Below, in pieces: positions 12,950-55,977 of a stretch of DNA of 64,000 nucleotides. A program made the translations under genes and the position numbers. The stretch is taken from the IMG/VR virus record IMGVR_UViG_3300032516_000003, positions 1,341 through 65,340 of that record; one strand, written 5' to 3'. The DNA comes from a virus. Numbering within the stretch: position 1 is the stretch's first letter; each line of letters begins with the position of its first letter. Below the pieces are notes generated by a model. The model was not told where the DNA came from. It did not search any database and was given only the letters and a program-made list of their open reading frames with translations.

Positions 12950-13456
12950 ATGTACAACACGGACCAGTGGAAGATCATGAAGCAGCTCGCCGGCTCACTC
13001 CCGAAGCGTGAGTCCCTCAAGATCGGGGACATCAAGGACAAGTGCTTCAAGTCTGCCCCCAACGACCGCGTGGTGCGGAACGCCATCCGCAAGCCGGTCG
13101 CCGAGGGCCACGTCGAGATCGCCGATCGTGGCGACTATCGGCTGACGGCGAAGGGCGCCGCCTTCTGCCAGAAGATGGAGAAGGAGGGCTTCAAGCCGGC
13201 GTCAGTGCGTCAGATGGCGAAGCCGTCTCAATCGATCAAGAAGAGTGCCAAGAAGGCCGCCCCGAAGAAGGTGGCCAAGAAGAGTGCCAAGAAGGCCGCC
13301 CCGAAGAAGGTGGCCAAGACCAACGGAGCCAAGGTCGAGTCCAAGCCGACCGAGAAGTCCCAGGCCCCCGAACCCAAGAAGAGCTCGGTCAAGATCCCCC
13401 GCCCCAAGAAGGACGAGTCGGCAGCTGCCGTTCCTCCGTCCACTCTCAGCTTCTAG
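12950..13456 (+). CDS. H1/Hc1-like DNA-binding protein: wHTH-like N-domain plus Lys/Ala/Pro repeat tail
   Basis: CAGGAGG SD, ATG 12950; tail KKSAKKAAPKKVAKKSAKKAAPKKVAK...KKSSVKIPRPKK; downstream of TTGACA-17-CATAGT promoter; terminator hairpin 13483-13513. Confidence 0.75.
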   Translation: MYNTDQWKIMKQLAGSLPKRESLKIGDIKDKCFKSAPNDRVVRNAIRKPVAEGHVEIADRGDYRLTAKGAAFCQKMEKEGFKPASVRQMAKPSQSIKKSAKKAAPKKVAKKSAKKAAPKKVAKTNGAKVESKPTEKSQAPEPKKSSVKIPRPKKDESAAAVPPSTLSF

Positions 13457-28686: not shown

Positions 28687-28980
28687 GTGGCCGAGATCGT
28701 TTCCAAGCCAACCACGGACGGGTACCGCAACAACTACGTTCGCACGTTCACCAGAGTACGGGTCGACAGCTTCGATGGCATCTACATCTTCATCGCTAAA
28801 TGTGGCGACCAAGAGCTACTCAGGGAGCGGTTCTCTGGTAAGGAACTCACAGCATCGGCGGAGAACCTGAACGATCTCCTGGAGCGTTTCTGGGGCCACA
28901 TCCCTGGGTTGACGCCTGAGGAGGGCAAGGCGCTCATGATCGAGGCCGTCGAGGACATCAAGTGCCGGTATGTAGGTTAA
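28687..28980 (+). CDS. hypothetical protein (GTG start), 97 aa
   Basis: AGGAGAGCACC-GTG. Confidence 0.6.
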   Translation: MAEIVSKPTTDGYRNNYVRTFTRVRVDSFDGIYIFIAKCGDQELLRERFSGKELTASAENLNDLLERFWGHIPGLTPEEGKALMIEAVEDIKCRYVG

Positions 28981-29136
28981 GAATGCACAGCGCCGTCGGC
29001 ACATTCTGTACCGTCCACCCGCTGCGGCCCCGGTGGCGGGGATTTCAACCCTGCACCTCCTCCGACGAGGATCCCTTCGTGCGGCGGCCGTCGTGGCGAT
29101 CTTGTTGATCCACACCGGGAGCTGAGATCTTATACC

Positions 29137-29562
29137 ATGAGCAAGGCCAAGTTTCAGAGCGTCATGGAGCAACGCAACAACCTTCTCAACCTCCAGGCGG
29201 TGTGGACCGAGATCAAGGAGTACCTTGGCAAGTTCATGAACACGGATGCAACGCCGGCGAAACACGGCATTCGCACCAAGACGGCGGAGTTGGTGGTGCC
29301 CCAGGACATCATCAGCAACGTGATCAGCCACATCGAGGTCGAGTACCTCGGCAGTATCCAACAGCAGTTGGACACCATCGACAGGAGCGACGTCCATGTC
29401 CAAGAAGACCAGGGGAGTGAAGAACAAGGTGCCCGGAAGGCCACCCGTCAAGGCCGATCCCCACAAGCAGAAGGCCACCCTCGCCCAGTTCGCCACCCTC
29501 GCCCAAGAGGCGCAGCAGGCACACCAGCAGCTGGCGCAAAAGGCCAACCGGGCGATCGCTGA
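29137..29562 (+). CDS. hypothetical protein; C-terminus uncertain
   Basis: GC3 bias ends ~29395 where next gene starts. Confidence 0.5.
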   Translation: MSKAKFQSVMEQRNNLLNLQAVWTEIKEYLGKFMNTDATPAKHGIRTKTAELVVPQDIISNVISHIEVEYLGSIQQQLDTIDRSDVHVQEDQGSEEQGARKATRQGRSPQAEGHPRPVRHPRPRGAAGTPAAGAKGQPGDR

Positions 29563-29986
29563 GCTGTGGAAGAACCAGCAGGAGATCTTGCAGGGTCTGA
29601 GCGCGGCCGAGTTCAACCTTCGCACTCACCAGAAGGTGATGAACGCCATCTCGTTGGAGCTGGACTCGCTCAGCAAGAGAATGCCGATGCCTGTCGGGAT
29701 GGCCATCGACGCGGCTCCCTCCTTCCTGGTCAAGAAGGAATTTACTGTGGACGGACAGGCCAGTCTCAAGGTCGATTGGACCTTCTACCACAGGCAAGTG
29801 GAAGAAGAACTCAAGGCCATGCGTGAGGCGGAGAAGGCCGCGGCGAAGGAAGCGGCCGCAGTGGCAGAGAAGGCCAAGGACGAGGCCCCAGCTCCAGAGG
29901 CGCCCCCTGCCCCCGAATCTGGTACAGTAGGGGTTAAGGAAGACGGAGGCTCCGGGATTCCGGATGGGGCCACCGTCTTCGGCTAG
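29396..29986 (+). CDS. coiled-coil, Ala/Glu/Lys-rich protein, 196 aa
   Basis: GACAGGAGCGACGTCC-ATG. Confidence 0.6.
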   Translation: MSKKTRGVKNKVPGRPPVKADPHKQKATLAQFATLAQEAQQAHQQLAQKANRAIAELWKNQQEILQGLSAAEFNLRTHQKVMNAISLELDSLSKRMPMPVGMAIDAAPSFLVKKEFTVDGQASLKVDWTFYHRQVEEELKAMREAEKAAAKEAAAVAEKAKDEAPAPEAPPAPESGTVGVKEDGGSGIPDGATVFG

Positions 29987-29995
29987 GAGTCAACG

Positions 29996-30184
29996 ATGTC
30001 AGTGATCACGACGAAGAATCGGCCGAAGAGGCAGGTGGTTGTGAAGGATGCTGGCCATCCGGCAGCCTTCAACAAGATCCGCTGTCCCAAGTGCAGCCTG
30101 GGCTACGCCGTGAAGAGCATGACCGAGCCCGACAAGTTCACCTGTGAGCGTTGTCACACCACCTTCACGGTCGGCAAGCTCTAG
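29996..30184 (+). CDS. Zn-ribbon protein (CPKC...CERC), 62 aa
   Basis: AGGAGTCAACG-ATG; last + strand gene before the inverted island. Confidence 0.55.
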   Translation: MSVITTKNRPKRQVVVKDAGHPAAFNKIRCPKCSLGYAVKSMTEPDKFTCERCHTTFTVGKL

Positions 30185-31251
30185 GCCTGCGCCACCTCAG
30201 CCGGATCTTCCTCCGGACGAGGATTGAGGTCAGTCACTTCCTCCGACCCTAGTCGCTTCGCGCGCTTCCCCCGATTGATGTGATTGAGCATGAGCTGATA
30301 CAGCAGCTCACGGGCCTTGCCAGAGGCGCTGGACAGGTTCCGCACCTCGGGGTCGGACACCGGGAAGGACTGGATCTTGCGGACGATGTTCTTGTCGACG
30401 TGAAGCCGGGAGCCGTGCCAGAAGATCTGGTGACGGGAGAAGATGGTGGCCAGGCAGGAGAGGAAGGACAGCCGCAGGTAGGTTGCCCCCTCACGGAAGG
30501 TGATGACCTTGATACCCCAGCAGTCGTCGATGATCTCGAAGAACGTCCTGAGATTGTCACGGAAAACGAGCCGGCCGATCTTGGTCATGATAGTCTGGAG
30601 CCCGCCGCTGAGTTCCGTAATCGTCACGCTGCGGCCAGGACCGAGATGCGAGTGCAGGATGCCCCCGACCCGCATGAGGGAGAGGGCGCTGATGAGGTGG
30701 TCACGGGTGGCGCGCTGGGCCCAGCACACCCGGTTGTGCATGATGAAGGTCTTGTCGTGGCAGAGTCCGTAGAGCAGCTCAATCACCGGCATCGTCGTCC
30801 GCATGTTGCGGATCAGGATGTTCGGGCTCAGCTTGCTTCGATCGGCGTTCAGTGTCCGGAATCGATCTCGTTCCCACGCCTCCGTGGTACTGAAGTGGAC
30901 GGTAGCCCCGAGCTTGGGTGAAGCACCCGGCTTGGTCTTCATGAGGTGGCGAGCCGCACTGACCCGCTGGAGCCCGTCGATGATGAAGACCGGGTCCTGC
31001 AGGTAGAACGCGTCGCCCTTCTCCAGATAGGACTGTCCGCGCATGCCCAGGTCAATGTCGGGCACGGAAGAGCCGGCGTCGAATGCCTTGGCCAGCTTGC
31101 TGATGGTCGTCAGTGGCATCACTTCCCGCTGGTACTCGGCGATCTTCAGTACCGCCAACGAACCGGGGTCGAGGACACCACGCAGGATGATCTCCATGTC
31201 GGGGGTTTCATCCAGCGCGGCATGGATCAGTTTCACGCTTTCTCGGGTCAT
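30181..31251 (-). CDS. ParB/Srx-superfamily nuclease-like protein (DUF262/DndB-like, DGxxR motif)
   Basis: AGAGGAAGACC-ATG at 31251; N-terminal IAEYQRE... and FIIDGLQRVSAARHL resemble DUF262/DGQHR motifs (YQR... / DGQQR). Confidence 0.6.
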   Translation of the reverse strand: MTRESVKLIHAALDETPDMEIILRGVLDPGSLAVLKIAEYQREVMPLTTISKLAKAFDAGSSVPDIDLGMRGQSYLEKGDAFYLQDPVFIIDGLQRVSAARHLMKTKPGASPKLGATVHFSTTEAWERDRFRTLNADRSKLSPNILIRNMRTTMPVIELLYGLCHDKTFIMHNRVCWAQRATRDHLISALSLMRVGGILHSHLGPGRSVTITELSGGLQTIMTKIGRLVFRDNLRTFFEIIDDCWGIKVITFREGATYLRLSFLSCLATIFSRHQIFWHGSRLHVDKNIVRKIQSFPVSDPEVRNLSSASGKARELLYQLMLNHINRGKRAKRLGSEEVTDLNPRPEEDPAEVAQA

Positions 31252-31302
31252 GGTCTTCCTCTTTGGTGTGCTCATAATGAGCTTTGAGGTTGACGGGTTG
31301 GA

Positions 31303-31593
31303 CTACCATTCTGGATCAACGATTACGTCGTGCCAATCGATGATGTCCCAGTTCAGCCAGCGGGTGGTGAGGAGTTTGCCCTTCAAGGCCTCGTCCTTCT
31401 TCCACTCCGCGTGCTTCTCTTCGGTGGTCTGTCCACCACAGAGAGTGATCTCTCCCATGATGGTGAGGACTCCATCGCTGCGGAAGGAGTCTTCCTTGTC
31501 GATGCCGTAGTCGGAGAAGACGTTGAGGATCTTGTCCTCCTCACCTTCTTCGACCGGCTTGATCTCAATCTCCACTCGGTAGAAGCGGCTCAT
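31303..31593 (-). CDS. hypothetical acidic protein, 96 aa
   Basis: minus-strand ORF, GC3-rich, weak SD. Confidence 0.5.
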   Translation of the reverse strand: MSRFYRVEIEIKPVEEGEEDKILNVFSDYGIDKEDSFRSDGVLTIMGEITLCGGQTTEEKHAEWKKDEALKGKLLTTRWLNWDIIDWHDVIVDPEW

Positions 31594-31865
31594 GGCTGGC
31601 TCCGTGTGTCGCCTGTGAGGATCCACTTGCAGTACCAGCAGAGAGTGCGAGGGTCTTGTAGACCCAGCCGGTATCCGCAATTCTCACAGCGTGTTGGCTC
31701 GATGAGGTGCTCAGGCAGGGGGAGCTCGCTGAAGATCCTCGGCGTTACGCGCCGATGGACTCCGCAATCTGTGGTGACCTCGCCGATGATCTTCTCTCCC
31801 GGCTTGCGCCAGGGAGGGTTGTCGTCGGGGCTCACGGCTGCTCCAGCAGCAGTTGGCTCAGACAT
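31590..31865 (-). CDS. Zn-ribbon protein (CENCG...CWYCKW), 91 aa
   Basis: ATG 31865; ATGA-type overlap with 31303 gene. Confidence 0.5.
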   Translation of the reverse strand: MSEPTAAGAAVSPDDNPPWRKPGEKIIGEVTTDCGVHRRVTPRIFSELPLPEHLIEPTRCENCGYRLGLQDPRTLCWYCKWILTGDTRSQP

Positions 31866-32362
31866 GCGAGCTGCCACTCGCGCTCGATGTGGTAGTCGGC
31901 GGAGGCGGCGGCGGCGGCGGCGGAGGCGGCGGCGGAGTAGGCGGAGTAGGCGGAGGCGGCGGCGGAGGAGGCGGCGAAGGCGGAGGAGGCGGCGGCGGAG
32001 GAGGCGGCGGAGGAGGCGGCGGCGGAGGAGGCGGCGAAGGCGGAGGCGGAGGCGATGTCCAACTCATTCGGCGACACTGACCCAGGCCACTCCAGTGCCC
32101 GCCGAGTGAGTCGTAGGCATGCCTGCACCCGCCGGTCACGGTTGAGATGCCGCACCCGCTCCGCGACGACCAGCGCGTACCACCGCTGCGCGTCGAGGGG
32201 CAGCACAGTGACCAGCCACCACACGTCGATCTCGTCGAGTGCCGCGAGCAGTGACAGGTTCTCTACCGTCGGCTCGAAGCCCTTGGGAAACCGCCGACAG
32301 ACCGTGAGCACCTGTGGCTGGCAAGCATGGTGCGCGCACAACAACTCCTTCGTGATCTTCAT
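31832..32362 (-). CDS. hypothetical protein with N-terminal Cys/His-containing domain and Ala/Ser low-complexity tract encoded by (GGC/GGA)n
   Basis: CAGGAGGCTCTG-ATG at 32362; in-frame with 53-triplet repeat 31897-32055. Confidence 0.5.
   Translation of the reverse strand: MKITKELLCAHHACQPQVLTVCRRFPKGFEPTVENLSLLAALDEIDVWWLVTVLPLDAQRWYALVVAERVRHLNRDRRVQACLRLTRRALEWPGSVSPNELDIASASAFAASSAAASSAASSAAASSAFAASSAAASAYSAYSAAASAAAAAASADYHIEREWQLACLSQLLLEQP
31897..32055. repeat. (GGC/GGA)n trinucleotide tract, ~53 triplets
   Basis: GGCGGAGGCGGCGGC... in-frame on minus strand as Ala/Ser run. Confidence 0.8.
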
Positions 32363-32589
32363 CAGAGCCTCCTGGCGAGCCAGCGCTCCACCGCGCGCTG
32401 CGCCGGTGCTAGATGTACGTAGAGGCGCTCCCACGTCTCGGTGCCGTGCCAGGCATACGCTCGCCGGCCCTGGACGTGGGCGGCGACCATGCCGCCGTGG
32501 CCATCGCCGCCGACCATGAGGTCGGGGCCGTCCCAGTGCCATTCCAGCGTGAGCGCAGGGGAAGAGGGTCCTGTCTTGGCTTTTTTCAT
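32362..32589 (-). CDS. hypothetical protein, 75 aa
   Basis: GAAGGGAGGCGCGCG-ATG; stop overlaps next start. Confidence 0.5.
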   Translation of the reverse strand: MKKAKTGPSSPALTLEWHWDGPDLMVGGDGHGGMVAAHVQGRRAYAWHGTETWERLYVHLAPAQRAVERWLARRL

Positions 32590-32837
32590 CGCGCGCCTCC
32601 CTTCATGTGGCGCCGGGCGGCGAGCATGGCATCTTCGGCCTCAGTCGCAGGCGCGAAGCACTTCACCGTGAGGTAGAGCGTCCCGCACAACGCCTTGCGG
32701 TCGGCGATGGCGACGAGCGCATGGCGCAGCGCCCGTGCCAGCCGATCTTCCGCCTGGTCGGCATCGGCGCCGACGTTGTTCTCGGCGATCTCTACCAGTC
32801 GGTTGCGGATCTCACGCTCGGCTTCGTCGTCGGTCAT
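32586..32837 (-). CDS. hypothetical acidic protein, 83 aa
   Basis: TGCGGGAGGCGCGCG-ATG (same 14-nt initiation block as neighbour). Confidence 0.55.
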   Translation of the reverse strand: MTDDEAEREIRNRLVEIAENNVGADADQAEDRLARALRHALVAIADRKALCGTLYLTVKCFAPATEAEDAMLAARRHMKGGAR

Positions 32838-33085
32838 CGCGCGCCTCCCGCAGGGGGATTGAGCAAAGCGGCCGGCAGGTCGTCGAGCGTGTCGAGTAGC
32901 TCGCGCATATCGGCCCACGAAAGTACGAGGCCGGCGCACGGATCCACGAGCTTCCTCCCGCTATATTCGCCCATGAGCACCTCTGCTTCGCGACGCAGAA
33001 TGCTGATGTCCAGCGAGGTCACGCGCACGAGAATGTCCCCATGTTCGGTGTGACAGATCGTGCGCTCGTCGCCTGGGTTCAGCAT
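32834..33085 (-). CDS. hypothetical protein, 83 aa
   Basis: ATGA coupling; weak SD. Confidence 0.5.
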   Translation of the reverse strand: MLNPGDERTICHTEHGDILVRVTSLDISILRREAEVLMGEYSGRKLVDPCAGLVLSWADMRELLDTLDDLPAALLNPPAGGAR

Positions 33086-33270
33086 GATCTACCGCCCGCG
33101 GGGGGATCGAGGGCCAGTCGCAAATCCTTGACAAACCGCTTCATCACCCCCCAGTCACTCGGCGGTGTCACCGTGGCCCAGTAGACCAGCAGGTGTCTCA
33201 CCCGCTGCTCGCGCTCACGTAGTTCGTCGATCTCGCGGCGCAGTAGTCGCATGGCCTTTGGCTCGCTCAT
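33079..33270 (-). CDS. hypothetical protein, 63 aa
   Basis: ATGA coupling to upstream tiny gene. Confidence 0.5.
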
Positions 33271-33371
33271 GGCTTCACGGGCTCGTAGGTCGCCTCGAAG
33301 ATGTCTGGCTTGCAGGGGTAGCGCTCGCCCTTGACGCCGGTGATGATCCAGTCGCCGGGGATGCACGTCAT
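33267..33371 (-). CDS. tiny protein [34 protein letters not shown], 34 aa
   Basis: GGGAGGGAGAAGG SD; coupled on both sides. Confidence 0.45.
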
Positions 33372-33487
33372 CGTGCCTTCTCCCTCCCCTTGAGTTCCCT
33401 CTCCCTTTTGGTGAGGGCGCTCTCCAGGCCAGGAAGGTAGTTCTTCTTGATCCAATTCTCGTGCCGACGCTCGCGTGCTGCGTTCAT
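33368..33487 (-). CDS. tiny basic protein, 39 aa
   Basis: GTCAGGAGGCTAAGTTC-ATG. Confidence 0.4.
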
Positions 33488-33625
33488 GAACTTAGCCTCC
33501 TGACGTTGATGCCGTTGTGGTGGAGCATAGCGAGACAAGCCAAACAGCACTGGAACTCCGGATCTCTCTTCCGGTTCCCCTTGTAGCGGCCAGTTGACTT
33601 GCCTCGACAAACGGGGAACTGAACT

Positions 33626-35654: not shown

Positions 35655-38600
35655 ATGCCCATCTCCTCACACCAAATTGGGGGTCTCATCGGTGGCCAGC
35701 AGGCCATGTTCGGGAATTTCCATTCCTACGCTCAGCAGATCAGTCCCTATGGCCAGCAGGGTCCTGTTGGCTACTCCAACCCCATGGCTGGCATGGGCGA
35801 GATGATGCAGCCTCCGCCAGCACCGCACGCCGAACTGCAACGGATGGGTGAGCAGTTCGGCACCGGCGCGGTGGGGATGATGGGCCACATCCCGGGCGCG
35901 ATGGGGATGATGGGGGTGGCCGGCGGCATCGGTGGCTTGATGGGCAGCCGAGCCCTAGGCGCGGTAGGTGGTGCGGCTTCGATGCTAGATCCCTTCTCCG
36001 CCGGAATTGGCGGCTTCGCGCGGGGCATCGGCTGGCAGAGTGGCGCCGGCATCGGGGCGAATCTAGGCCGATTGGGATCGATGGGTATCGGTGGTATTGC
36101 CCGCGCCGGCGTGGCTGGCCTAGGTGGAGCAGCGCTCGCGGCAGCCCCGGCGATGTTGGCCACGGAGGCCATTCGGTACGGGGCCGGCCAGATGGTCCAG
36201 GGTGCTCAGTACCAGAACCAGGTTGGCAACGTCCTCCAGAACCAGTTTCGCTTCCTCAGCCCCGGCGGTGGCACCGGCGGCTACGGCTTCAGCGGCCAGG
36301 AGCGCAAGGGCATCTCCGACATGATGCGGGAGATGGGTCACAAGGAGATGATGTCCACTCCCAGCGAGATGCTGCGATTGCTGCAGCAGGGCGCCGGGAT
36401 GGGGATGTTCAAGGCTGTCTCTGACGCCAAGGAGTTCAAGAAGAAGTTCCAGGAGATGGTGGGCACGGTCAAGGAAGTGGCCAAGGTGATGAACACGAGC
36501 CTGGAGGGGGCGATGCCCTTCCTGGCCCAGGCGCGACAGCAGGGCTTCTGGACGCCGCAGGACATCCTACGCAACGCCACCATGGCCCGCTCGACGGCCG
36601 CCGCCACCGGGATGTCAGTGGCACAAGTGCAGGGCATGATGGGTCAGGGAGCCCAGATGGCGCGTGCTGTGGGCGCTCAAGGGCGGGCAGGTGCCAGGGG
36701 CATGGCTCGGTCTTTGGAAACAGCTGCGGCCATGGTCGGCGGTCCAGGCAGGGCCGGTATGCTTTCCGAAGAGCAAGTCGGGGAGCTCACCGGGGGAATG
36801 CAAGGACCCGAAGCCGTTGCTGCTCTTGCTCAGAACATGCAGGAGGCCTCAACCCGCTTCGCACGGAGCAACGTGGCCCGCTGGACCATAGCAGCCCTTG
36901 GGAGGGACAAGTTTAGCCAACTTGATCCCGCCAAAGTACGAGCTCTCTCCGAGGGGAGGATCTCGATCGGTCAGATAGGCGGCGGGGCACGCGGCAACAT
37001 CGGTCGTCAAGGCGCTGCCAACTTCGTGATGAACGAGGAGCGTCTTCGTGGGCAACTGATTGAGATGGGTCCCCAGGCACAGATGGGCTTTGCCGCTGGT
37101 CTCGTCGGTGAGCGCTTGTACAGTGAGAAGCCGATGGACCAGTACGTCGTGCGCCGCATGTTGAAGCGTTTCGGTATTGCGCAGACCAGCCAAGAAGCCG
37201 ATGCCAAGGCTAAGATCATGCGCGACCTTCCGCGGATGATGCAGGAGATGAAAGTACGCAGCACGCTGGAGATGGATCAGACGGAACGAAACCAAGAGGA
37301 TCAACTCAGTCGCTCGTGGGATGGTGTCAAGCGCCAGATGGGCAAGTGGTGGGATGCCAACGTGAAGGAGCCGCTGCAGAAGGCTGGCGCCGATATGGCT
37401 CATTCGGCCAGTGAGTGGTTCGAGCGGGCCTCGGACCGGATGTTTGGTCGGGTGCAGAAACGCCATCAGATCGGGGCTGTCTCCCAGATGGGTGGGCGGG
37501 CCATGAGCGAATACGCTCTGACCGGCAACACCCGGCAGATGGAGATCGCATTCGGTGAACGTGGAAGTGCAAAGATAGGTGGTGGAGCTGGAGCTCTGGG
37601 CCTGACAGGCTTTGATGCAGGCATGGGGAACGCGTTTGGTGGCCAGGGAGTTCTGCGCGGTGCGCAGAATCTGTACTCCGGCGCCATGGGGATGGGGTTC
37701 AACAAGACCAACGCCAACATCGAGTGGCTGGCCAGAATGGGTGTGAAGGAAGGGGCGGTTGGGACGGAGGCGGAACGCCAGGCGTTGCTCAAGCAGGGTG
37801 GGTATCTAAGCGGCCGTACCAGCGGCGGTCCTGGAGTTGGTGCCTACCGTGTGATGGCCGAGGCTGATGTGAAGAAGGCGGTCAGCGGCTATCAGGCGGC
37901 AGTTGGTGGAGACATCACCGAGGAGCGGGCCAAGGGATTGGGCTATGACTCTGCCAAGGAGGCCAAGGTCGCCCTAGAGAAGGGCAAGCGGATCATGGGT
38001 GATCCATCCTTGGGCTTGAAGATGCAGCGCATTGCCCGGGAGACCGGCAAGTCCGGTCGCGAGCTGCTGGAGGAATACACTCGTCGTGCCCAGAAGGGTG
38101 AGTTCGGCGAAGACGCGAAGTCCTTCCTCGGTCAAGGTGACCGAGCTGAGCAAGTCCATCGTCTCCATGCCGCCATGGACCAAAAGACACGGGAGGGCTA
38201 TGGCGGCGGTGATCTGCGCGGCGAAGCCCCCAGTCAGATCGATCCTTTCCGTATGACGGAGAAGCAGCTGGCTGAGCACACGGAGAAGCAGGAAGCTCGC
38301 CTGGCCGAAGCTGCTGGTGGGGAGGGCGGAGGGCCCATGAAATGGGTCCGTCGTGGCGTAGAGGCGCTCGACAAGGCAGCAGCCTTCGCTGGCGGTCCTC
38401 TGGCAGATCTCGCTTCCTCCATGGGCCTCACGACCACAGGCTTGGCCAAGAAGCTCATGCCCAAGGCGGTGACGCAGGAGTCGGTGGGCAAGCTGCGCGA
38501 GAAGGGTGGTCCGATGATGGACGAGGCCATCCGGACTCTCGCCAATGACAAAGCTACCCCAGAGGAGAAAACGAAGGCCCGGCAGTTCTTGAAGGACTTC

Positions 38601-39557
38601 AGATCGGAAAACAAGGATCTGCCGGATGACCAAGCGCGGGCACTGGAGGTCATGGGCGGCGAAGGTGGCAATCGGCAGGAGGCCGACGCTGCGATGAAGG
38701 GCATCGCTGGCGCCATCGGCACACGTGATCAACAAGCTGTCGCAGCACTGGTCGGTCGCCGCGTCAATCGTATGAAGCAGAACATGGGCGAGCAGTACGA
38801 TCAGGCCATGGCCCTGACCACGGCTGTTGGTGCTGAGGCTTCGGGTCTCACCGGCATCGGCAAGGAGGTTGAGGGTCTGGTGAAGGGTGCTGGCACGGAA
38901 GATCCGTACAAGACCCAGGACCGGCTTTCCAAGATCGCAGCTGCAGCCTCGAAGATGGATCCCAAGCAGCTGGCTGAGTTCAAGGAGAAGTTCGCTGGGG
39001 TGCCCGGGGCGGAGATGATCAGTGAGGCCTTGGAAGGTGGCACTCAGGCCAAGGAGACCAGCAAGGCGTTGGTGACTGGCGGCAAGGGTGGCATGGGCCG
39101 CGCCTACCAGTTGGTGCAGGAACTTACCGGCAGGAAGCTGACGACGGCGCAGTACAGAGCGTTGCAGAAGGGCGACAAGAAGGCAGCCGAAGCCCTGCTG
39201 AGCGGTGTTGAGGGTGGCCGCAAAGAGATGGCCGAGAAGCTCTTCGGCGCCATCGGTTCGCAGGACGAAGCAGCGGCGACGGACGTCCAGTCCCGGATGG
39301 CCGGCGAGCGGGCCGGCGGGGCCCTCACCGGGGTCAAGCGGCGGACGCCGGAAGAGGTTGCGGAGGACATCGCCAAGAAGGCCAAGGGTGGGGAGATGTT
39401 TGGCCGCCTAGGCAGCGGCGAGGGAATGCACCAGCAGATGCTCATCACCAACCGGCTGCTGGGGGATATCGCGGCGAAGGTTGGCAAAGAAGGCAACACA
39501 GGTGCCCCAGCCGAGAAGCCCGTGGGTGGAGCACAGAAGAAAACAGAAGTGAGGTAG
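35655..39557 (+). CDS. tape-measure-like protein (1300 aa, Gly/Ala/Met/Gln-rich, helical repeats)
   Basis: TTAGGAGCCGAGC-ATG; size, low complexity and position ahead of Dit-/Tal-sized genes. Confidence 0.6.
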   Translation: MPISSHQIGGLIGGQQAMFGNFHSYAQQISPYGQQGPVGYSNPMAGMGEMMQPPPAPHAELQRMGEQFGTGAVGMMGHIPGAMGMMGVAGGIGGLMGSRALGAVGGAASMLDPFSAGIGGFARGIGWQSGAGIGANLGRLGSMGIGGIARAGVAGLGGAALAAAPAMLATEAIRYGAGQMVQGAQYQNQVGNVLQNQFRFLSPGGGTGGYGFSGQERKGISDMMREMGHKEMMSTPSEMLRLLQQGAGMGMFKAVSDAKEFKKKFQEMVGTVKEVAKVMNTSLEGAMPFLAQARQQGFWTPQDILRNATMARSTAAATGMSVAQVQGMMGQGAQMARAVGAQGRAGARGMARSLETAAAMVGGPGRAGMLSEEQVGELTGGMQGPEAVAALAQNMQEASTRFARSNVARWTIAALGRDKFSQLDPAKVRALSEGRISIGQIGGGARGNIGRQGAANFVMNEERLRGQLIEMGPQAQMGFAAGLVGERLYSEKPMDQYVVRRMLKRFGIAQTSQEADAKAKIMRDLPRMMQEMKVRSTLEMDQTERNQEDQLSRSWDGVKRQMGKWWDANVKEPLQKAGADMAHSASEWFERASDRMFGRVQKRHQIGAVSQMGGRAMSEYALTGNTRQMEIAFGERGSAKIGGGAGALGLTGFDAGMGNAFGGQGVLRGAQNLYSGAMGMGFNKTNANIEWLARMGVKEGAVGTEAERQALLKQGGYLSGRTSGGPGVGAYRVMAEADVKKAVSGYQAAVGGDITEERAKGLGYDSAKEAKVALEKGKRIMGDPSLGLKMQRIARETGKSGRELLEEYTRRAQKGEFGEDAKSFLGQGDRAEQVHRLHAAMDQKTREGYGGGDLRGEAPSQIDPFRMTEKQLAEHTEKQEARLAEAAGGEGGGPMKWVRRGVEALDKAAAFAGGPLADLASSMGLTTTGLAKKLMPKAVTQESVGKLREKGGPMMDEAIRTLANDKATPEEKTKARQFLKDFRSENKDLPDDQARALEVMGGEGGNRQEADAAMKGIAGAIGTRDQQAVAALVGRRVNRMKQNMGEQYDQAMALTTAVGAEASGLTGIGKEVEGLVKGAGTEDPYKTQDRLSKIAAAASKMDPKQLAEFKEKFAGVPGAEMISEALEGGTQAKETSKALVTGGKGGMGRAYQLVQELTGRKLTTAQYRALQKGDKKAAEALLSGVEGGRKEMAEKLFGAIGSQDEAAATDVQSRMAGERAGGALTGVKRRTPEEVAEDIAKKAKGGEMFGRLGSGEGMHQQMLITNRLLGDIAAKVGKEGNTGAPAEKPVGGAQKKTEVR

Positions 39558-39781: not shown

Positions 39782-41005
39782 ATGGCCGATCCGGTGTTCG
39801 TGGAGTTGCAGACCGACGCCTTTGCCGAGAACTTCGATCGGTTCAAGTTCAGGCCGGCCAACGGCGGCGTGCGGCGGCCGGTTCGTGGCTTCGAGATCAA
39901 GGAAGACACCTACGGGATGATCAAGGTCATCCGTGCCGACGGGACCATGATCCCCCTGACCGATGCCGCCGGCCCACTCTCACCCTCTTCTGGCAGCGAG
40001 ACCGGTGCCGGCTCGGGTGTACCCCAGCAGGGAGCGACAAAGCCGCGTACTGGAGCCACCTACAACTACTCCAACTTCATCATCCAGAGCGTCGTGGAGA
40101 GCCGGCAGGAGAAGGCCCAGGTCCTGGAGACCTTCGGTGACACCTTCGTGTTCTTCTTCGGTGAGCGGCCGCGCATCCTGCAGGTCAGTGGCATCCTGAT
40201 GAACACTCTGGACTTCAACTGGCGTACGGAGTTCTGGTACAACTACGAGAACACCCTCCGCGGCACCAAGCTCGTCGAGCAGAACGCCCGCATCTACCTC
40301 TTCTACGACGATCTGGTCGTGGAGGGGTACATGCTGGGCGCCAATGCTCAAGACCTGGCGGAGAACCCGTACCACATCCCGTTCAGCTTCCAGCTCTTTG
40401 TCACCAATCACCAGTACCTCGGCAACATTGGCCAGGAGGACTATCCGATCACTCACGCGGTCAACCTCAAGCCGCTGCTCACGGCGACGGAGGTCATGGA
40501 AGCCAAGAACATCCTCAAGTCGCTGGGCATCCAGACGCAGAAGACCGACACGCTGGTGGGCTCGTTGCTCGACTCATTCCGCTCCATGAGTTCTGGTGGA
40601 CTCACCGTCAAGGCCCCATTGATTGAAGGCGTCAGTTTGAGCCTCCAGTCGGCGGCCACGATGTTCTTAGACGTGGCCAAGACCTTCTTCGGCATGTTGA
40701 TCCCTTCTCGCCTGATGCCGTACCGCACCAAGCTGCGCGACAATCGGGATGAGTTCATGAACAACTACGAGTGGGGCTACATCTCCGATGATCGGGTGAC
40801 CAAGGCCATCCTTGATCAGCAATTCGCCAGCATGTTCGCGGTGGGAGGAGCCATCGTGGCTGATCTGGTAGGCGTCGGCATCAATGCGCTCGTGCCAGGA
40901 GTAGGTTGCCCGTTGCTGGAGGCCACGCATGGCCTATTCGCCACGAGTTCACCGATGCCGGTATACAACACCTTCGCGATCCGGACGACTGGATACGGAC
41001 AATGA
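39782..41005 (+). CDS. distal-tail (Dit)-like structural protein, 407 aa
   Basis: TAGGAGCTGAC-ATG; position after TMP. Confidence 0.6.
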   Translation: MADPVFVELQTDAFAENFDRFKFRPANGGVRRPVRGFEIKEDTYGMIKVIRADGTMIPLTDAAGPLSPSSGSETGAGSGVPQQGATKPRTGATYNYSNFIIQSVVESRQEKAQVLETFGDTFVFFFGERPRILQVSGILMNTLDFNWRTEFWYNYENTLRGTKLVEQNARIYLFYDDLVVEGYMLGANAQDLAENPYHIPFSFQLFVTNHQYLGNIGQEDYPITHAVNLKPLLTATEVMEAKNILKSLGIQTQKTDTLVGSLLDSFRSMSSGGLTVKAPLIEGVSLSLQSAATMFLDVAKTFFGMLIPSRLMPYRTKLRDNRDEFMNNYEWGYISDDRVTKAILDQQFASMFAVGGAIVADLVGVGINALVPGVGCPLLEATHGLFATSSPMPVYNTFAIRTTGYGQ

Positions 41006-44000
41006 CCGGCGGCCACTCTCTTGGTCTTCGCTGCTTCCTGGAGGGCATTGAGATCCCGGTCATCGGGGCCAACGTCACTGTCGTTGCCAATGCGCCGGTA
41101 GCTGCCCAGATCCAGGTGATCGGCACCGACCGGTTGCTGACCATCATGCCGCGTACGGTCGTTCACCTGTTCTTCTACGACTACGTCGATGCCGCCAACC
41201 CGCTCAGCCAGGAGGACATCAACAACGCCGGCCTCGACCCAGCTGATCAAGAGCTGTCCAAGTACCGGCTGCTCTTCATGGGCGAGGTGCAGGGCATTGG
41301 CTTCCAGAAGAATTCAGCGGAGCGGGCCGCCATCTTGAACTGCGTCGACTTCTCCAACTACTGGGACACCACCTACCAGTACAACTTCGGTGGCCAGCTC
41401 TTCGGTGGCCAGCAGCAAGCAGCCTTCATCGGGGCCAACGCCAACCTCTTCACAAGCCCTCTGGGTCATGGTGTCGGCACCTTCGCCGCGCTACTGCAAG
41501 GCAAGTCGGCCAACTTCCCCAAGATGAAGGGTCTGCTCGCCGGCGTCGTGCGGTGCCTCGAAGCAATCGGTGGCTGCTACTACGGCAAGGACACCTTCAA
41601 GGGTGCCAACGACTTCACTTCCCTGGCCGAGCTGCGGCTGAAGATCTTGCAGCAGATCACGGCCGCGGAGTTGGATGACAGCACCGCCAAGCTGTTCGCG
41701 CGCAAGGCCTTCAACATGTGGATGAACCAGCAGATGCAGGGGCTGGGCAAGCTGGTGACCTTCCGGGGTGTGGTGCAGATCCTCGACCAGTTCATCTTCC
41801 ATGAGATCTACCCCAATCCCTGCGCCCGCTACATTCCCGAGCAGCAGGTGCAGCAGCAGCAGGCCTACTACGCGGACGCCGCCACCGATCCACGCTTCCG
41901 CAGCATCTATGATGCTTACCGCAAGCTGATCAAGCTACTCAAGTCGGCGAAGAGCAACCTCAGCCCCATCGCCATCACCGAGAAAGAGATCAAGGCCGCG
42001 GCCTCTGATCTATCTCAGGCCGGAAGAGTGCTGGATTCACTCATCGCCAATGAGGCCTCGCGCTTTACCAGTGGCATCGGCGCGCAGATGCTTTCCGTGA
42101 ACCCGGAGGTGGAGCTGGCGCGAACCTGGAAGGTGCTGGGGGGCAGTTCGCATATCAATCCGGTGGATGTGTCTACTGCACTTGACGTGATGGCTCGTAG
42201 GGCAGCCTTGGGCTACATCGACACGGCGTTGAAAAACCTGCAGAGTGCGGTCACTGGCAAGGCGATCAAGAAGCAGAAGATGGTCACCACCACGCAGCGT
42301 AGTCGGGTCAATAACCAGATCTTGCGGCCTGACATCTGGTTCGTACCTCCGCCGCGCTGCAACGTCCTCTTCCCCGAGATGTACGAGAGCTTCCAATGGC
42401 AGCGCAACTTCCTGCGGGAGGTCTCTCGCATGGAGCTGCAGACTACGCATGAGATTCTTGGGGATGATGCGCTCTTCAACGGCCGCTACTACGCTCCTGA
42501 CGTCGCTGACATGCGGAAGGGGGTGAAGCTCTCCTCCCGAAACTTCTCCAGGCTGACCATGGAGCACGAGCTCTACACAGGGATCATCCCCATGTACGAG
42601 AAGCTGAGCGAGGCCAACCTATTCGCCATGGGCAGCAAGCAGGTGAACGTCGGGGGCGCCAAGGTCGGCTACGCCCAGCGGGCCGTCAACTTCATGTACT
42701 TCAAGCACCGCTTCGCCTCGCGGCAGATGGGAGCCAGTGGCCGCTTCAATCCGTGGTTCGTGGCTGGGTTCCCGGGGCTCTTGATTGACAAGCCGATGGA
42801 CGCGGTGAACCTGGCGATCTCCGGCCTACCGGTGGAAGACGCCCTGAAGGTGCTCGACTTCCAGCCGGACGACCCGTCGGAGATCACCAGAGCGGTGCTG
42901 CTGCAGAAGCTGGTGCCGATGCAGTACATGGGCATGTGTGCACAGCTGACACACAATCTCAGCCAGCAGGGTGGCCGCACGGAGTATGCCTTCACTCAGG
43001 CGCGAGTCCATCGTGAGGATGCCGAGTTCTTGGGCGTGGACAAGGCCACGGTCAACAAGAAGGTGGGTACTGGCTCGCGGACCTATGTGGTCAGTGCCGC
43101 GGTCACCAAGCCGCCAACCAAGGGGATGCTCGGCAGATATGGCGGTCCGCTCTCTTCAGTGAAGGATGTATCTTCCTCGTACAAGGGCCGCTACCTTACT
43201 GGCTTGCGGGACACGCGCAAGTTCCTTGGCACTGGCTCCAGCAGTGCCATCGCGCAGGAGTATTACCCAATCGATGGCGCGAAGGTGAAAGCCTACGAAG
43301 TCAAGGAGAGCTTCGACCGGCGAGCCAGAGTGAAGATCAATAAGCCCATCGAGGACGCCATCCGGCCACCCTGGATCTGGGACGGCTGGACCAACCTGAA
43401 GATCGGCGACACGTACCTGCAGTTCTTCGGCACCAACGCAATCACCGACATCGAGGGCTTCACTGCCACCGGCACGGCCGCAATCAATGCCATCGGCTCG
43501 GGCCTGGCCGAAGACTACGGCATGGTGATCGAGTCGTCTCAAGGAGTGGCCCAGGGCAGCGGCGTCAATCCCATGACTGCGCCTCAGACCCCACTCACAC
43601 CATTCTCGGGGGCGGCTCCCAACTACGGCCCACCTACGGCTGGACTGGGAGCACCATCGACGCCGAACCAACGGCCCCCGTCCACCAGTCTCTCGGCCTA
43701 CGACCAGAAGATCTCCGCGGCCACAATCCTCGCCATCGAGAAGGAACGGACGATCGAGAACGCGGTGGACTATCTGGTGCGGCTGTACAGTTACCTCAAG
43801 GCCAACAGCCTGGACGTGGGCCAGTTCCTACGCAACTACTCCTGGCGCCCAGTGGCGACGTTGGTGGACATCCTGGGCTCTTCCAAGTTCACCATCAGGC
43901 CAGATCCAGCCGATCCCGACAAGTTCGTCACCAGCGGACAAGAGGGCTTCCACAGCCGGGCCTTCAGTGATGAAGCCAACCTCTTCGGGCTAGTAGATCC

Positions 44001-44187
44001 GCAGGTGGGCAACATTCTGGGACTCAAGCGACCACCAAGCGGCATGAATCTGATAGGTCGCTACCTCATGTCTATGACAGATCCACACTATTCGGCGGTG
44101 GCGAAACTCGATGTTCGAGGTGCCCGACGCAAGGTGGTGCGGGAGTACGTGAACGAACTCACCAATTCCCGAGGCTTGCTGGGATAG
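41002..44187 (+). CDS. large tail/baseplate protein (Tal-like), 1061 aa
   Basis: ATGA coupling to Dit-like gene; size and position. Confidence 0.65.
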   Translation: MTGGHSLGLRCFLEGIEIPVIGANVTVVANAPVAAQIQVIGTDRLLTIMPRTVVHLFFYDYVDAANPLSQEDINNAGLDPADQELSKYRLLFMGEVQGIGFQKNSAERAAILNCVDFSNYWDTTYQYNFGGQLFGGQQQAAFIGANANLFTSPLGHGVGTFAALLQGKSANFPKMKGLLAGVVRCLEAIGGCYYGKDTFKGANDFTSLAELRLKILQQITAAELDDSTAKLFARKAFNMWMNQQMQGLGKLVTFRGVVQILDQFIFHEIYPNPCARYIPEQQVQQQQAYYADAATDPRFRSIYDAYRKLIKLLKSAKSNLSPIAITEKEIKAAASDLSQAGRVLDSLIANEASRFTSGIGAQMLSVNPEVELARTWKVLGGSSHINPVDVSTALDVMARRAALGYIDTALKNLQSAVTGKAIKKQKMVTTTQRSRVNNQILRPDIWFVPPPRCNVLFPEMYESFQWQRNFLREVSRMELQTTHEILGDDALFNGRYYAPDVADMRKGVKLSSRNFSRLTMEHELYTGIIPMYEKLSEANLFAMGSKQVNVGGAKVGYAQRAVNFMYFKHRFASRQMGASGRFNPWFVAGFPGLLIDKPMDAVNLAISGLPVEDALKVLDFQPDDPSEITRAVLLQKLVPMQYMGMCAQLTHNLSQQGGRTEYAFTQARVHREDAEFLGVDKATVNKKVGTGSRTYVVSAAVTKPPTKGMLGRYGGPLSSVKDVSSSYKGRYLTGLRDTRKFLGTGSSSAIAQEYYPIDGAKVKAYEVKESFDRRARVKINKPIEDAIRPPWIWDGWTNLKIGDTYLQFFGTNAITDIEGFTATGTAAINAIGSGLAEDYGMVIESSQGVAQGSGVNPMTAPQTPLTPFSGAAPNYGPPTAGLGAPSTPNQRPPSTSLSAYDQKISAATILAIEKERTIENAVDYLVRLYSYLKANSLDVGQFLRNYSWRPVATLVDILGSSKFTIRPDPADPDKFVTSGQEGFHSRAFSDEANLFGLVDPQVGNILGLKRPPSGMNLIGRYLMSMTDPHYSAVAKLDVRGARRKVVREYVNELTNSRGLLG

Positions 44188-50404: not shown

Positions 50405-50574
50405 TGACAAACTGCAACAAGTGCGCGAAGGAGCTCGCCGAGAAAGAAGTGGCGGCCTACTACGACTTCCCGCCAGGGACGAAGCAGCACCTCTGTCAGG
50501 AGTGCTACGATCAGTACCGGGTCGCCTGCGCTGAGCAAGGAGCGGCAACCGAGGACGCGGAGTGGGTTGGTTAG
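50401..50574 (+). CDS. Zn-ribbon protein (CNKC...CQEC), 57 aa
   Basis: AGGAGGGC-ATG, ATGA coupling. Confidence 0.5.
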   Translation: MMTNCNKCAKELAEKEVAAYYDFPPGTKQHLCQECYDQYRVACAEQGAATEDAEWVG

Positions 50575-55552: not shown

Positions 55553-55969
55553 ATGTCCCAATACGACAGCCTCGTCATCAAGTCCGGCATCCCGACCGTC
55601 ATCGGGACCGACACCTTGCGTGCTGATCGCGGAGCACCTGCGGGACTGACGACGACTGGGCTGGCTTCAGGAGATGCCTGCCAGATCTCCGGGGCGCTCA
55701 CCCTTCAGAAGGCGGTGAACACCAGCACGAGTCCGATCATCGGCATCTACGATGGGGTGTCAGGCTCGGTGGTGCGAGAGGGTGTAGTCGTCGCCACGTT
55801 CTCGGATAGCTGTCCTGCTGCCGGCAGTGCCGTCTACCTGTCCTCCACGGCGGGGCAACTCACGGGAACCAAGCCAACCACCGACTACTTGCATGAAGTA
55901 GGGGTAGTGATCGACGCCTCGACGTGCAAGGTGTTACTGCAACCGAAGCCAGTGATCATGCTGTCGTAG
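55553..55969 (+). CDS. hypothetical protein, 138 aa; paralog of N-terminal domain of next gene
   Basis: shares QYDxLVIKSG...DTDTLRAD...AGLTTTGL.GDACQ.SG.LTL.KA..TS.P.IG.YD.V.GSVVREGVV with 55978 gene. Confidence 0.65.
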   Translation: MSQYDSLVIKSGIPTVIGTDTLRADRGAPAGLTTTGLASGDACQISGALTLQKAVNTSTSPIIGIYDGVSGSVVREGVVVATFSDSCPAAGSAVYLSSTAGQLTGTKPTTDYLHEVGVVIDASTCKVLLQPKPVIMLS

Positions 55970-55977
55970 AGGAACGT

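Follow-up and report, generated by a model that had tools for sequence, protein, structure and literature searches.

The Imm5 and Imm5_like families (PF14423, PF21805), which are annotated as putative immunity proteins belonging to polymorphic toxin systems, contain the closest described relatives of the gene product considered here, and the signature of Imm5 has been given as a mostly alpha fold with conserved R and D (Zhang et al. 2012, PMC3482391). For the repetitive part of that product, the nearest described parallel is found in the alanine-rich type I fish antifreeze proteins, in which one Ala codon is preferred (63-76%) in a manner unexplained by genomic GC content, and whose coding sequence has been described as highly mutable, presumably via unequal recombination (PMC3855684). 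The gene in question lies on the minus strand of a stretch of 64,000 nucleotides of viral DNA (IMG/VR record IMGVR_UViG_3300032516_000003, positions 1,341 to 65,340), which we refer to as the window and from whose first letter all positions below are counted; it encodes a protein of 176 amino acids (aa) and carries, in frame, a near-pure (GGC/GGA)n trinucleotide tract. The locus is a newly recognised divergent member of the already known Imm5-like family with a coding tandem repeat, and the tract is probably the coding sequence of a variable-length, Ala/Ser-rich helical hairpin, the hallmark module of a mainly virus-borne Imm5/Imm5_like branch. In the architecture that we propose, an all-alpha N-terminal domain (N-domain) of ~100 aa would be followed by an Ala-rich repeat of ~25-140 aa, folded as two antiparallel helices, and by a short C-terminal helix that closes the base of the hairpin. 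A speculative reading of the tract as a linker or contingency locus, which a preliminary description made from the letters of the window had put forward, is thereby replaced by that of an Imm5-like phage protein with a structural hairpin that changes length in nature.

With Imm5 and Imm5_like, the window gene shares profile homology of the N-domain, an all-alpha fold, and a conserved Asp/Arg pair, and the same profile matches giant poly-Imm5_like "polyimmunity" proteins; it differs in that the window protein falls below the Pfam threshold, and in that its gene is placed in a phage early-gene-like operon without toxin or polyimmunity neighbours, the toxin associations known for Imm5 (DYW deaminases, CdiA-CT) not being seen at the window locus. 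The antifreeze proteins have in common with the window family their Ala-rich amphipathic helices and the preference for one Ala codon (PMC3855684), but the phage family takes this bias much further, to 100% in the window and to 90% or more in 37 of 62 relatives, and the phage repeat would form an intramolecular hairpin on a conserved domain, in a viral protein unrelated to ice binding. Like bacterial contingency loci, the window gene has an intragenic simple-sequence tract whose length differs between near-identical genomes; unlike them, its tract changes are all multiples of 3 and no pure run exceeds 6 units, which amounts to a graded change of a module and not to phase variation.

The human FMR1 gene contains a (CGG)n repeat with AGG interruptions, and the plus strand of the window tract, read in the CGG register, similarly comprises 29 CGG broken by 19 AGG (besides 3 CGA and 2 AGT) and as a single strand forms modest hairpins, although the phage tract is densely interrupted (runs of at most 6), coding, 159 bp long, and unstable by way of higher-order units of 12 to 60 nt. 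In the variable regions of diversity-generating retroelements (DGRs), adenines are targeted, and AAY codons cannot create stops. The repeats of the window family resemble these regions in their diversity at codon positions 1 and 2, their fixed third base, their lack of stops, and their location in a putative viral binding protein; they differ in that the 64-kb window holds no template repeat, that G and C are the bases that vary, and that they are internally repetitive and variable in length. A last parallel is with the synthetic binding libraries of Fellouse, Wiesmann and Sidhu (2004), which reportedly used a "four-amino-acid code" of Tyr, Ala, Asp, and Ser, specified by the KMT codon, in antibody loops. 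Family repeats likewise consist mostly of Ala, Tyr, Asp, and Ser from (G/T)(C/A)Y codons, that is the KMT set; the alphabet shared with synthetic binders is suggestive, the analogy being one of composition only, with the residues placed on predicted helices and not in antibody loops.

Gene architecture and membership of the Imm5-like family

The features of the gene are as follows, with the basis of each in brackets.

31832..32362, minus strand: gene for the divergent Imm5-like protein of 176 aa (open reading frame (ORF) and translation, homologs, leave-one-out profile)
32072..32362, minus strand: N-terminal all-alpha domain, aa 1-97, the conserved family core (alignments, AlphaFold2 (AF2), N-domain-only profile)
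31897..32055: (GGC/GGA)n tract, (GCC/TCC)n on the coding strand, aa 104-155, ASASAFAASSAAASSAASSAAASSAFAASSAAASAYSAYSAAASAAAAAASA (Tandem Repeats Finder (TRF), codon counts)
31886..32059, minus strand: 58 consecutive NNC codons, codons 102-159 (position 3 invariant, positions 1 and 2 varying)
31952..31986: 35-nt exact direct repeat, first copy (longest exact internal repeat)
32012..32046: 35-nt exact direct repeat, second copy, 60 nt from the first (the copies bound a 60-bp indel)
31835..31885, minus strand: conserved C-terminal segment, aa 160-176, EREWQLACLSQLLLEQP (counterpart of the family motif K-I-L-x-Y-G-I-x-L-L)
32368..32373, minus strand: Shine-Dalgarno sequence AGGAGG, 5 nt upstream of the ATG (direct reading of the sequence)

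The gene extends from an ATG at 32362-32360 to a TGA at 31834-31832, and its product begins MKITKELLCAHHACQPQ and ends ASASAFAASSAAASSAASSAAASSAFAASSAAASAYSAYSAAASAAAAAASADYHIEREWQLACLSQLLLEQP. Sequence, TRF, and ORF translation agree on the near-pure, in-frame, minus-strand array of 159 bp that the preliminary description had placed at 31897-32055; with a period of 12/15 and a score of 177-197, it is the top tandem array of the 64-kb window. In the coding register, it comprises 31 GCC (Ala), 17 TCC (Ser), 2 TTC (Phe), and 2 TAC (Tyr) codons, and its longest pure run of a single unit is 6 (18 nt). The AGGAGG ribosome-binding motif was rightly noticed in that description, its true position being 32373..32368 and not 32362, whereas the characterisation of the N-domain by its Cys and His residues finds little echo in the alignments, in which C14 alone among those residues is conserved across the family. 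On the plus strand, the tract is covered by a poly-Arg ORF (31330..32109) and a poly-Gly ORF (31853..32080); homologs were found for the minus-strand frame only, and the two plus-strand ORFs are by-products of the repeat, as had been suspected.

To avoid circularity, relatives were sought with a profile built from N-domains without the repeat. Among 1.84 billion representatives searched, this N-domain-only profile matched 3,292 at E ≤ 1e-3 and 1,535 at E ≤ 1e-10. A tail of at least 25 aa follows the N-domain in 150 of the 153 matches inspected (median 75 aa, range 0-138), with a median Ala content of 39% against 10% in the N-domain and with Tyr, Asp, and Ser as the next most frequent residues, so that the comparison of relatives at this position, which had been proposed at the outset, does return an Ala-rich repeat. 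The family tail closes with the conserved motif listed above, the equivalent in the window protein being ...QLACLSQLLLE.... Pfam matches among 122 homologs are dominated by PF21805 Imm5_like (115 of 122 at E ≤ 1e-3), followed by DUF6931 (50) and Imm5 (18), and the PF21805 model itself reaches into the Ala-rich region.

The window protein is connected to this family by several comparisons. A phmmer search of 5.8e9 sequences links it to P0004 (E = 2.7e-6) and P0005 (E = 7.7e-4), both of which carry PF21805, and the distant homologs share with it an Ala/Ser/Tyr/Trp-rich repeat at the same position. A leave-one-out profile made from distant members only aligns colinearly to the window protein with 22.1 bits (E = 6e-9 in a one-sequence test), of which the N-domain alone gives 13.3 bits. 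Alignments mark A13, C14, W48, Y62, A67, V70, D76, R78, and P93 as conserved in the N-domain; D76 and R78 are invariant (alignment A1), which fits the "R, D" signature of Imm5 (PMC3482391), and the AF2 model of the window protein is all helical, with the conserved Asp and Arg, in keeping with the Imm5 fold. The window protein has no match in Pfam, NCBIfam, or PADLOC and, in PHROGs, only a weak match to a family of unknown function. On profile homology and conserved architecture, we assign the window gene to the Imm5-like superfamily as a divergent member; the Ala-rich repeat is the defining architectural module of the branch, conserved in it, and not a linker.

Distribution of the family

The family comprises thousands of mostly viral proteins in which a helical hairpin would be encoded by a single-codon microsatellite. 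The related loci are phage-like, with phage replication and structural genes as neighbours, and no conserved neighbour was found across 85 of them, which rules out a fixed toxin-immunity pair. The family is abundant among metagenomic viruses, and the search of 50,697 cultured phage records gave a single match; the preliminary description's remark that such tracts are unusual in phage genomes accordingly holds for cultured phages and fails for metagenomic viruses. A profile scan of genome contigs with alignment A5 returned 3 loci only. Methanosarcina virus MetMV (MK170447.1, 47296-47967) carries a family member in an archaeal virus, and two further members are found on ~41-kb contigs (L008, L009) that are binned with metagenome-assembled genomes of Methanosarcinales and Methanoperedens and are probably viral genomes. 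Given these members, the family spans viruses of bacteria and archaea.

The N-domain profile also retrieves giant proteins of the polyimmunity type. P0007 (2410 aa) has 11 Imm5_like domains in tandem and P0008 (3069 aa) has 7; both contain Imm6-like stretches, and P0008 a NUDIX domain. An opening stretch of ~30 residues typical of the family (MKITKELLxKxGAC..G..WF) is also carried by proteins whose repeats are of a wholly different kind, as seen on two IMG/VR contigs: at L004:3060-3821, a family-type head precedes MORN_2 repeats (Pfam 1e-21), with a second gene bearing such a head directly downstream (4001 to the contig end), and at L005:4001-4741, it precedes a GVNGSY-type hexapeptide repeat that has no Pfam match. 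This suggests, from the sequences of these contigs, that a shared N-terminal module may be fused to interchangeable repeat domains.

Structural organization of the repeat

The non-Ala positions of the repeat, taken over 202 family proteins, are positively autocorrelated at lags of 3, 4, 7, and 11 residues and negatively at 2, 5, and 9, a pattern that marks a helix whose non-Ala residues share one face. For a typical member, P0272, AF2 run on a 120-sequence alignment gave a mean predicted local distance difference test score (pLDDT) of 90.4 and a predicted template modelling score of 0.79; in this model, the repeat forms helices of ~40 residues (99-138 and 144-182) with a turn in mid-repeat, the hairpin has a pLDDT of 72-97, and the conserved C-terminal motif lies at the hairpin base, ending helix 144-182. 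The model of the window protein has the same topology, with long antiparallel helices 98-130 and 137-173, and a pLDDT of 66-92 over residues 1-120. In both proteins, the repeat is thus modelled as a two-helix antiparallel alpha-hairpin.

Codon purity and substitution pattern

Codon use in ten window genes, in which Ala is written as GCC in 45% and Ser as TCC in 22% of cases, served as the reference for the tract. There, all 31 Ala codons are GCC (P = 1.7e-11) and all 17 Ser codons are TCC (P = 8e-12), and in the same gene outside the tract GCC accounts for 0 of 10 Ala codons and TCC for 0 of 4 Ser codons. Against the 58-codon NNC run stand NNC frequencies of 25% for the remainder of the gene and 43.5% for the ten reference genes (P from 3e-35 to 1e-21). 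Codon bias as the source of the purity of the DNA is ruled out (P ~1e-11), because the two residues are written uniformly within the tract while the rest of the gene uses neither of the two codons.

The same holds more widely, since the 37 of 62 related loci in which one codon makes up at least 90% of the repeat Ala have genomic GC contents of 31-64%, with examples as extreme as 63/63 GCC in a locus of 47% GC and 56/56 GCT in one of 31%, and the N-domains of the same set of loci use mixed codons. In family repeats, the third codon position is nearly invariant, and the non-Ala codons share its base. The locus of 47% GC (L031:600-905) contains a ~300-bp island of GCC, TAC, ACC, GAC, and TCC codons with abrupt entry and exit in an AT-rich gene, and is the clearest example of repeat composition decoupled from genome composition.

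Relative to the dominant Ala codon, changes in the family repeats affect position 1 only in 168 cases, position 2 only in 194, and both in 263, and are synonymous, at position 3 only, in 27. G>T makes up 72% of the position-1 changes and C>A 75% of the position-2 changes, and the resulting (G/T)(C/A)Y set encodes Ala, Ser, Asp, and Tyr. An overall bias towards G:C>T:A mutation is ruled out as a sufficient cause, C>A being found 4 times at the synonymous position 3 against 497 times at position 2. As nonsynonymous changes far exceed synonymous ones and favour Tyr, Ser, and Asp, selection on residue identity is indicated. The simplest reading is that of a coding repeat born as a microsatellite, whose rapid turnover homogenises the codons and in which selection retains certain non-Ala residues.

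Length alleles and in-frame instability

Three alleles, differing only inside the tract, make up the 90%-identity cluster of the window protein. The 176-aa allele of the window is recorded from both JGI and ENA sources; a 156-aa allele with a 60-bp deletion is found on a JGI contig (L091), an independent assembly; and an ENA contig (L001) holds a second allele of 156 aa, with the same deletion and a shifted Ser codon, the substitutions of L001 being absent from L091. An alignment of the window with L001 over 1,543 nt shows 3 substitutions, of which 2 are in the tract (Fisher P = 0.013), and the one 60-nt tract indel, which is bounded by the 35-nt exact direct repeats at 31952 and 32012. As the two copies span 95 nt and all k-mers of at least 39 nt across the tract are unique, the copy number is resolvable by short reads and k=141 graphs.

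Within the family, repeat length differs in all five pairs whose N-domain DNA is at least 97% identical, by 12, 27, 60, 126, and 162 nt (all multiples of 3), and two of these five pairs show zero substitutions. A close subfamily displays a hypervariable repeat between conserved flanks, and the finished genome of MetMV contains the module, at the same position, as perfect 30-bp x3 and ~63-bp x2 repeats. Slippage-type in-frame instability of the tract is supported, as the preliminary description had anticipated for relatives, and indels outpace substitutions in the repeat. The term contingency locus, which that description had tentatively used, is not apt in the sense of an on/off switch, because the frame is always preserved and pure runs do not exceed 6 units. 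In practice, the length of the tract offers a marker for the strain-level tracking of such phages.

Alternative explanations

A number of observations weigh against the proposed hairpin module or against its assignment. The window protein is linked to the main family by no more than modest homology (22 bits in total, 13 bits from the N-domain alone), and it has no Imm5 or Imm5_like Pfam match even at E ≤ 1, short of the gathering threshold. Confidence in its AF2 model is low beyond approximately residue 125 (pLDDT 43-63), possibly due to a repeat that is unusually Ser-rich (17 of 52 residues); such a composition lowers helix propensity, and the window protein could therefore be more flexible in this segment. 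Fold searches of solved and viral predicted structures returned generic helical-bundle matches only, and no toxin or other conserved partner gene stands beside the family members in the 85 related loci. The alleles of the window gene and of the family pairs all come from short-read metagenome assemblies, and the perfect 126- and 162-nt unit pairs could reflect collapse by the assembler. Finally, no experimental study of Imm5_like was found in the literature, so that a binding or immunity function is purely a matter of inference.

The Ser-richness of the window repeat and the low AF2 confidence, here over residues 131-176, would equally suit a passive flexible linker, that is, a disordered Ala/Ser spacer whose length drifts neutrally by slippage and which has no structural or recognition role, and the free variation in length between relatives, with family tails of 0-138 aa, points the same way. 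We nevertheless consider this explanation, and with it the name of linker that had initially been given to the repeat, quite improbable: the module is present in 150 of 153 members found by a query free of the repeat, a helical periodicity of 3/4/7/11 is unexpected for a disordered spacer, the repeat of P0272 is a confidently modelled two-helix hairpin, the nonsynonymous changes that far outnumber synonymous ones favour particular residues, and what would be linked on the C-terminal side is only a segment of ~17 aa, the end of the second helix and no separate domain. An origin of the tract or of its length differences in collapse, expansion, or chimerism during short-read assembly deserves hardly any credence, even though both contigs with the short allele are only 1.75-1.79 kb long and collapse is plausible for the perfect unit pairs just mentioned, since the longest exact repeat (35 nt) and the unique k-mers leave the window tract resolvable, the 176-aa allele is shared by JGI and ENA, the deletion recurs in the separately assembled L001 and L091, one of them with extra substitutions, the reading frame is kept in all versions, and this repeat module is also found in the cultured virus MetMV, whose genome is finished.

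Programmed diversification, in which a DGR or another targeted mutator would rewrite codon positions 1 and 2, spare position 3, and so produce a natural binder library, could draw on the confinement of variation to the first two positions, on NNC and NNT codons that cannot become stops, and on the dominance of G>T at position 1 and C>A at position 2 with only 4 synonymous C>A cases at position 3. It is very unlikely all the same. Variation falls on G and C and not on adenines, on which DGRs act; the alleles differ by unit indels located between direct repeats, which is what slippage would produce; a relaxed blastn search with the tract and its flanks, over the 64-kb window of a ~194-kb genome, returned self-matches and a weak similarity at 29826-29886 only; and the related loci have no conserved neighbour such as a reverse transcriptase, a result obtained without a dedicated reverse transcriptase scan of every ORF. 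With no template repeat and the wrong bases mutated, a DGR target is disfavoured as far as the window shows. Another alternative is a role of the DNA itself, be it as a non-B structure (G-quadruplex or hairpin) or as a plus-strand gene, with the minus-strand protein as an incidental product; this we regard as extremely improbable. The G-rich plus strand, as single-stranded DNA, does fold at -34.8 kcal/mol, better than shuffles (z = -2.5), it offers 45 overlapping two-tetrad GG motifs, and long plus-strand ORFs are present. A G-quadruplex would, however, call for 4 or more runs of 3 G or longer, or for a G4Hunter score well in excess of 1.2-1.5, and the one suggested for the plus strand did not materialise: no G run is longer than 2, the count of canonical motifs is 0, the G4Hunter mean of 1.04 and peak of 1.20 are unexceptional in a window in which ~88 other clusters score at least 1.2, and the plus-strand ORFs are poly-Arg and poly-Gly without homologs. 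In members with a GC content of 31-48%, the same protein module is specified by GCT or GCA codons that lack G-richness, from which it follows that the protein is what is conserved. A role in mRNA structure is ruled out as well, the sense strand being less structured than shuffles (z = +4).

Proposed mechanism and function

If the variable-length hairpin is the correct explanation, the tract would act, at the level of DNA, as a microsatellite or minisatellite within a coding sequence. It would consist of a single Ala codon, GCC in the window, and of derivatives that depart from this codon at positions 1 and 2 only (TCC, TTC, TAC, and GAC), and slippage during replication, or unequal recombination at short direct repeats, would remodel it continually. 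Whole codons would thus be gained or lost, changing the length and the surface of the hairpin with the frame intact, and selection may hold Ser, Tyr, Asp, and Phe to one side of the helix, where they would make up a rapidly evolving surface for binding. We lean towards the view, on balance, that the length of the alpha-hairpin and its non-Ala face do form such a recognition surface. It would then represent a simple, retroelement-free way of diversifying a binding protein in viruses of bacteria and archaea, and a ready-made natural scaffold for minimal-alphabet binders.

What the surface might bind is more conjectural. The protein could neutralise a toxin or a defence effector during infection, a proposal that draws on the computational annotation of Imm5 and that we hold as tentative, with some doubt. 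Less likely still is a stronger version, in which the Imm5-like branch would be a virus-encoded "minimal-code" binder, made of a conserved scaffold and a hairpin whose surface is almost wholly Ala/Tyr/Ser/Asp from (G/T)(C/A)Y codons. The instability of its microsatellite would be maintained on purpose, perhaps with active diversification, so that phage populations would keep producing hairpins of new length and surface against polymorphic host toxins or defence effectors. Were it true, the system would be a slippage-driven functional analogue of DGRs or of the complementarity-determining regions of antibodies, and the near-absence of synonymous change against abundant change at positions 1 and 2, over thousands of members, would be its footprint. 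A family-wide hairpin that is single-codon, invariant at position 3, and dominated by indels appears not to have been described in the literature searched.

Genomic setting of the locus

The immediate neighbours of the gene are two small ORFs that overlap it by a few nucleotides.

32362..32589, minus strand: upstream ORF of 75 aa, whose stop overlaps the ATG of the 176-aa gene (TGATG)
31590..31835, minus strand: downstream ORF of 81 aa with a CxxC...CxxC pattern (zinc-ribbon-like; gene calls on L003 and L001)

The upstream ORF has no Pfam, PHROG, or PADLOC match, and the downstream one, whose GTG start overlaps the stop of the 176-aa gene (GTGA), has weak Zn_ribbon matches only; no toxin or defence match was found for the window neighbours in these three collections. 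The TGATG and GTGA overlaps suggest that the 176-aa gene may be translationally coupled to both neighbours. No paralog of it is present in the window, where it is the sole ORF that matches the hidden Markov models of the family, and the 64-kb window contains no phage tRNA for Ala or Ser.

That the window is phage DNA is evident from a tail sheath protein (PHROG, 1e-93), tail fibre and virion proteins, and an ATP-dependent ligase. The identical 176-aa protein is recorded on a metagenomic ENA contig of 193.7 kb (L003), which is 100% identical to the window over 28832-33269 and whose first 449 nt (L003:1-449) match nothing in the window, the junction being at 33269/33270; L001, in turn, is ~99.8% identical to the window down to 31169 and unrelated beyond that point (L001:1484-1788). 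Given these sharp mosaic junctions, the repeat gene lies in a recombination-prone block of small genes. Among GenBank phages, there was neither a DNA match (megablast of 31000-33500) nor a protein match to the window sequence, and several long ORFs lack any Pfam or PHROG match, namely those at 30181-31275 (minus strand, 364 aa), 35655-39557 (plus strand, 1300 aa), 40906-44187 (plus strand, 1093 aa), and 57484-60120 (plus strand, 878 aa). The phage is poorly represented in reference collections.

In the virion and tail-fibre region, the window encodes a DUF2341/BNR-like protein of 825 aa (50562-53036) and a Kelch-repeat beta-propeller protein (55924-57465; Kelch_6, 2e-25), Kelch propellers being, to our knowledge, uncommon among phage structural modules. 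A short GCGGCGAAGGAA-type repeat of period 12 at 29826-29886, inside the limits of a 196-aa gene predicted on the other strand, is 71-87% similar to the tract over 31-60 nt and is too short and divergent for a template copy. The second-strongest tandem repeat of the window by TRF, at 13237-13319, consists of 2.1 copies of a 39-nt unit at 100% identity (CAAGAAGAGTGCCAAGAAGGCCGCCCCGAAGAAGGTGGC), with a nested AAGAAG periodicity of 12-15 nt.

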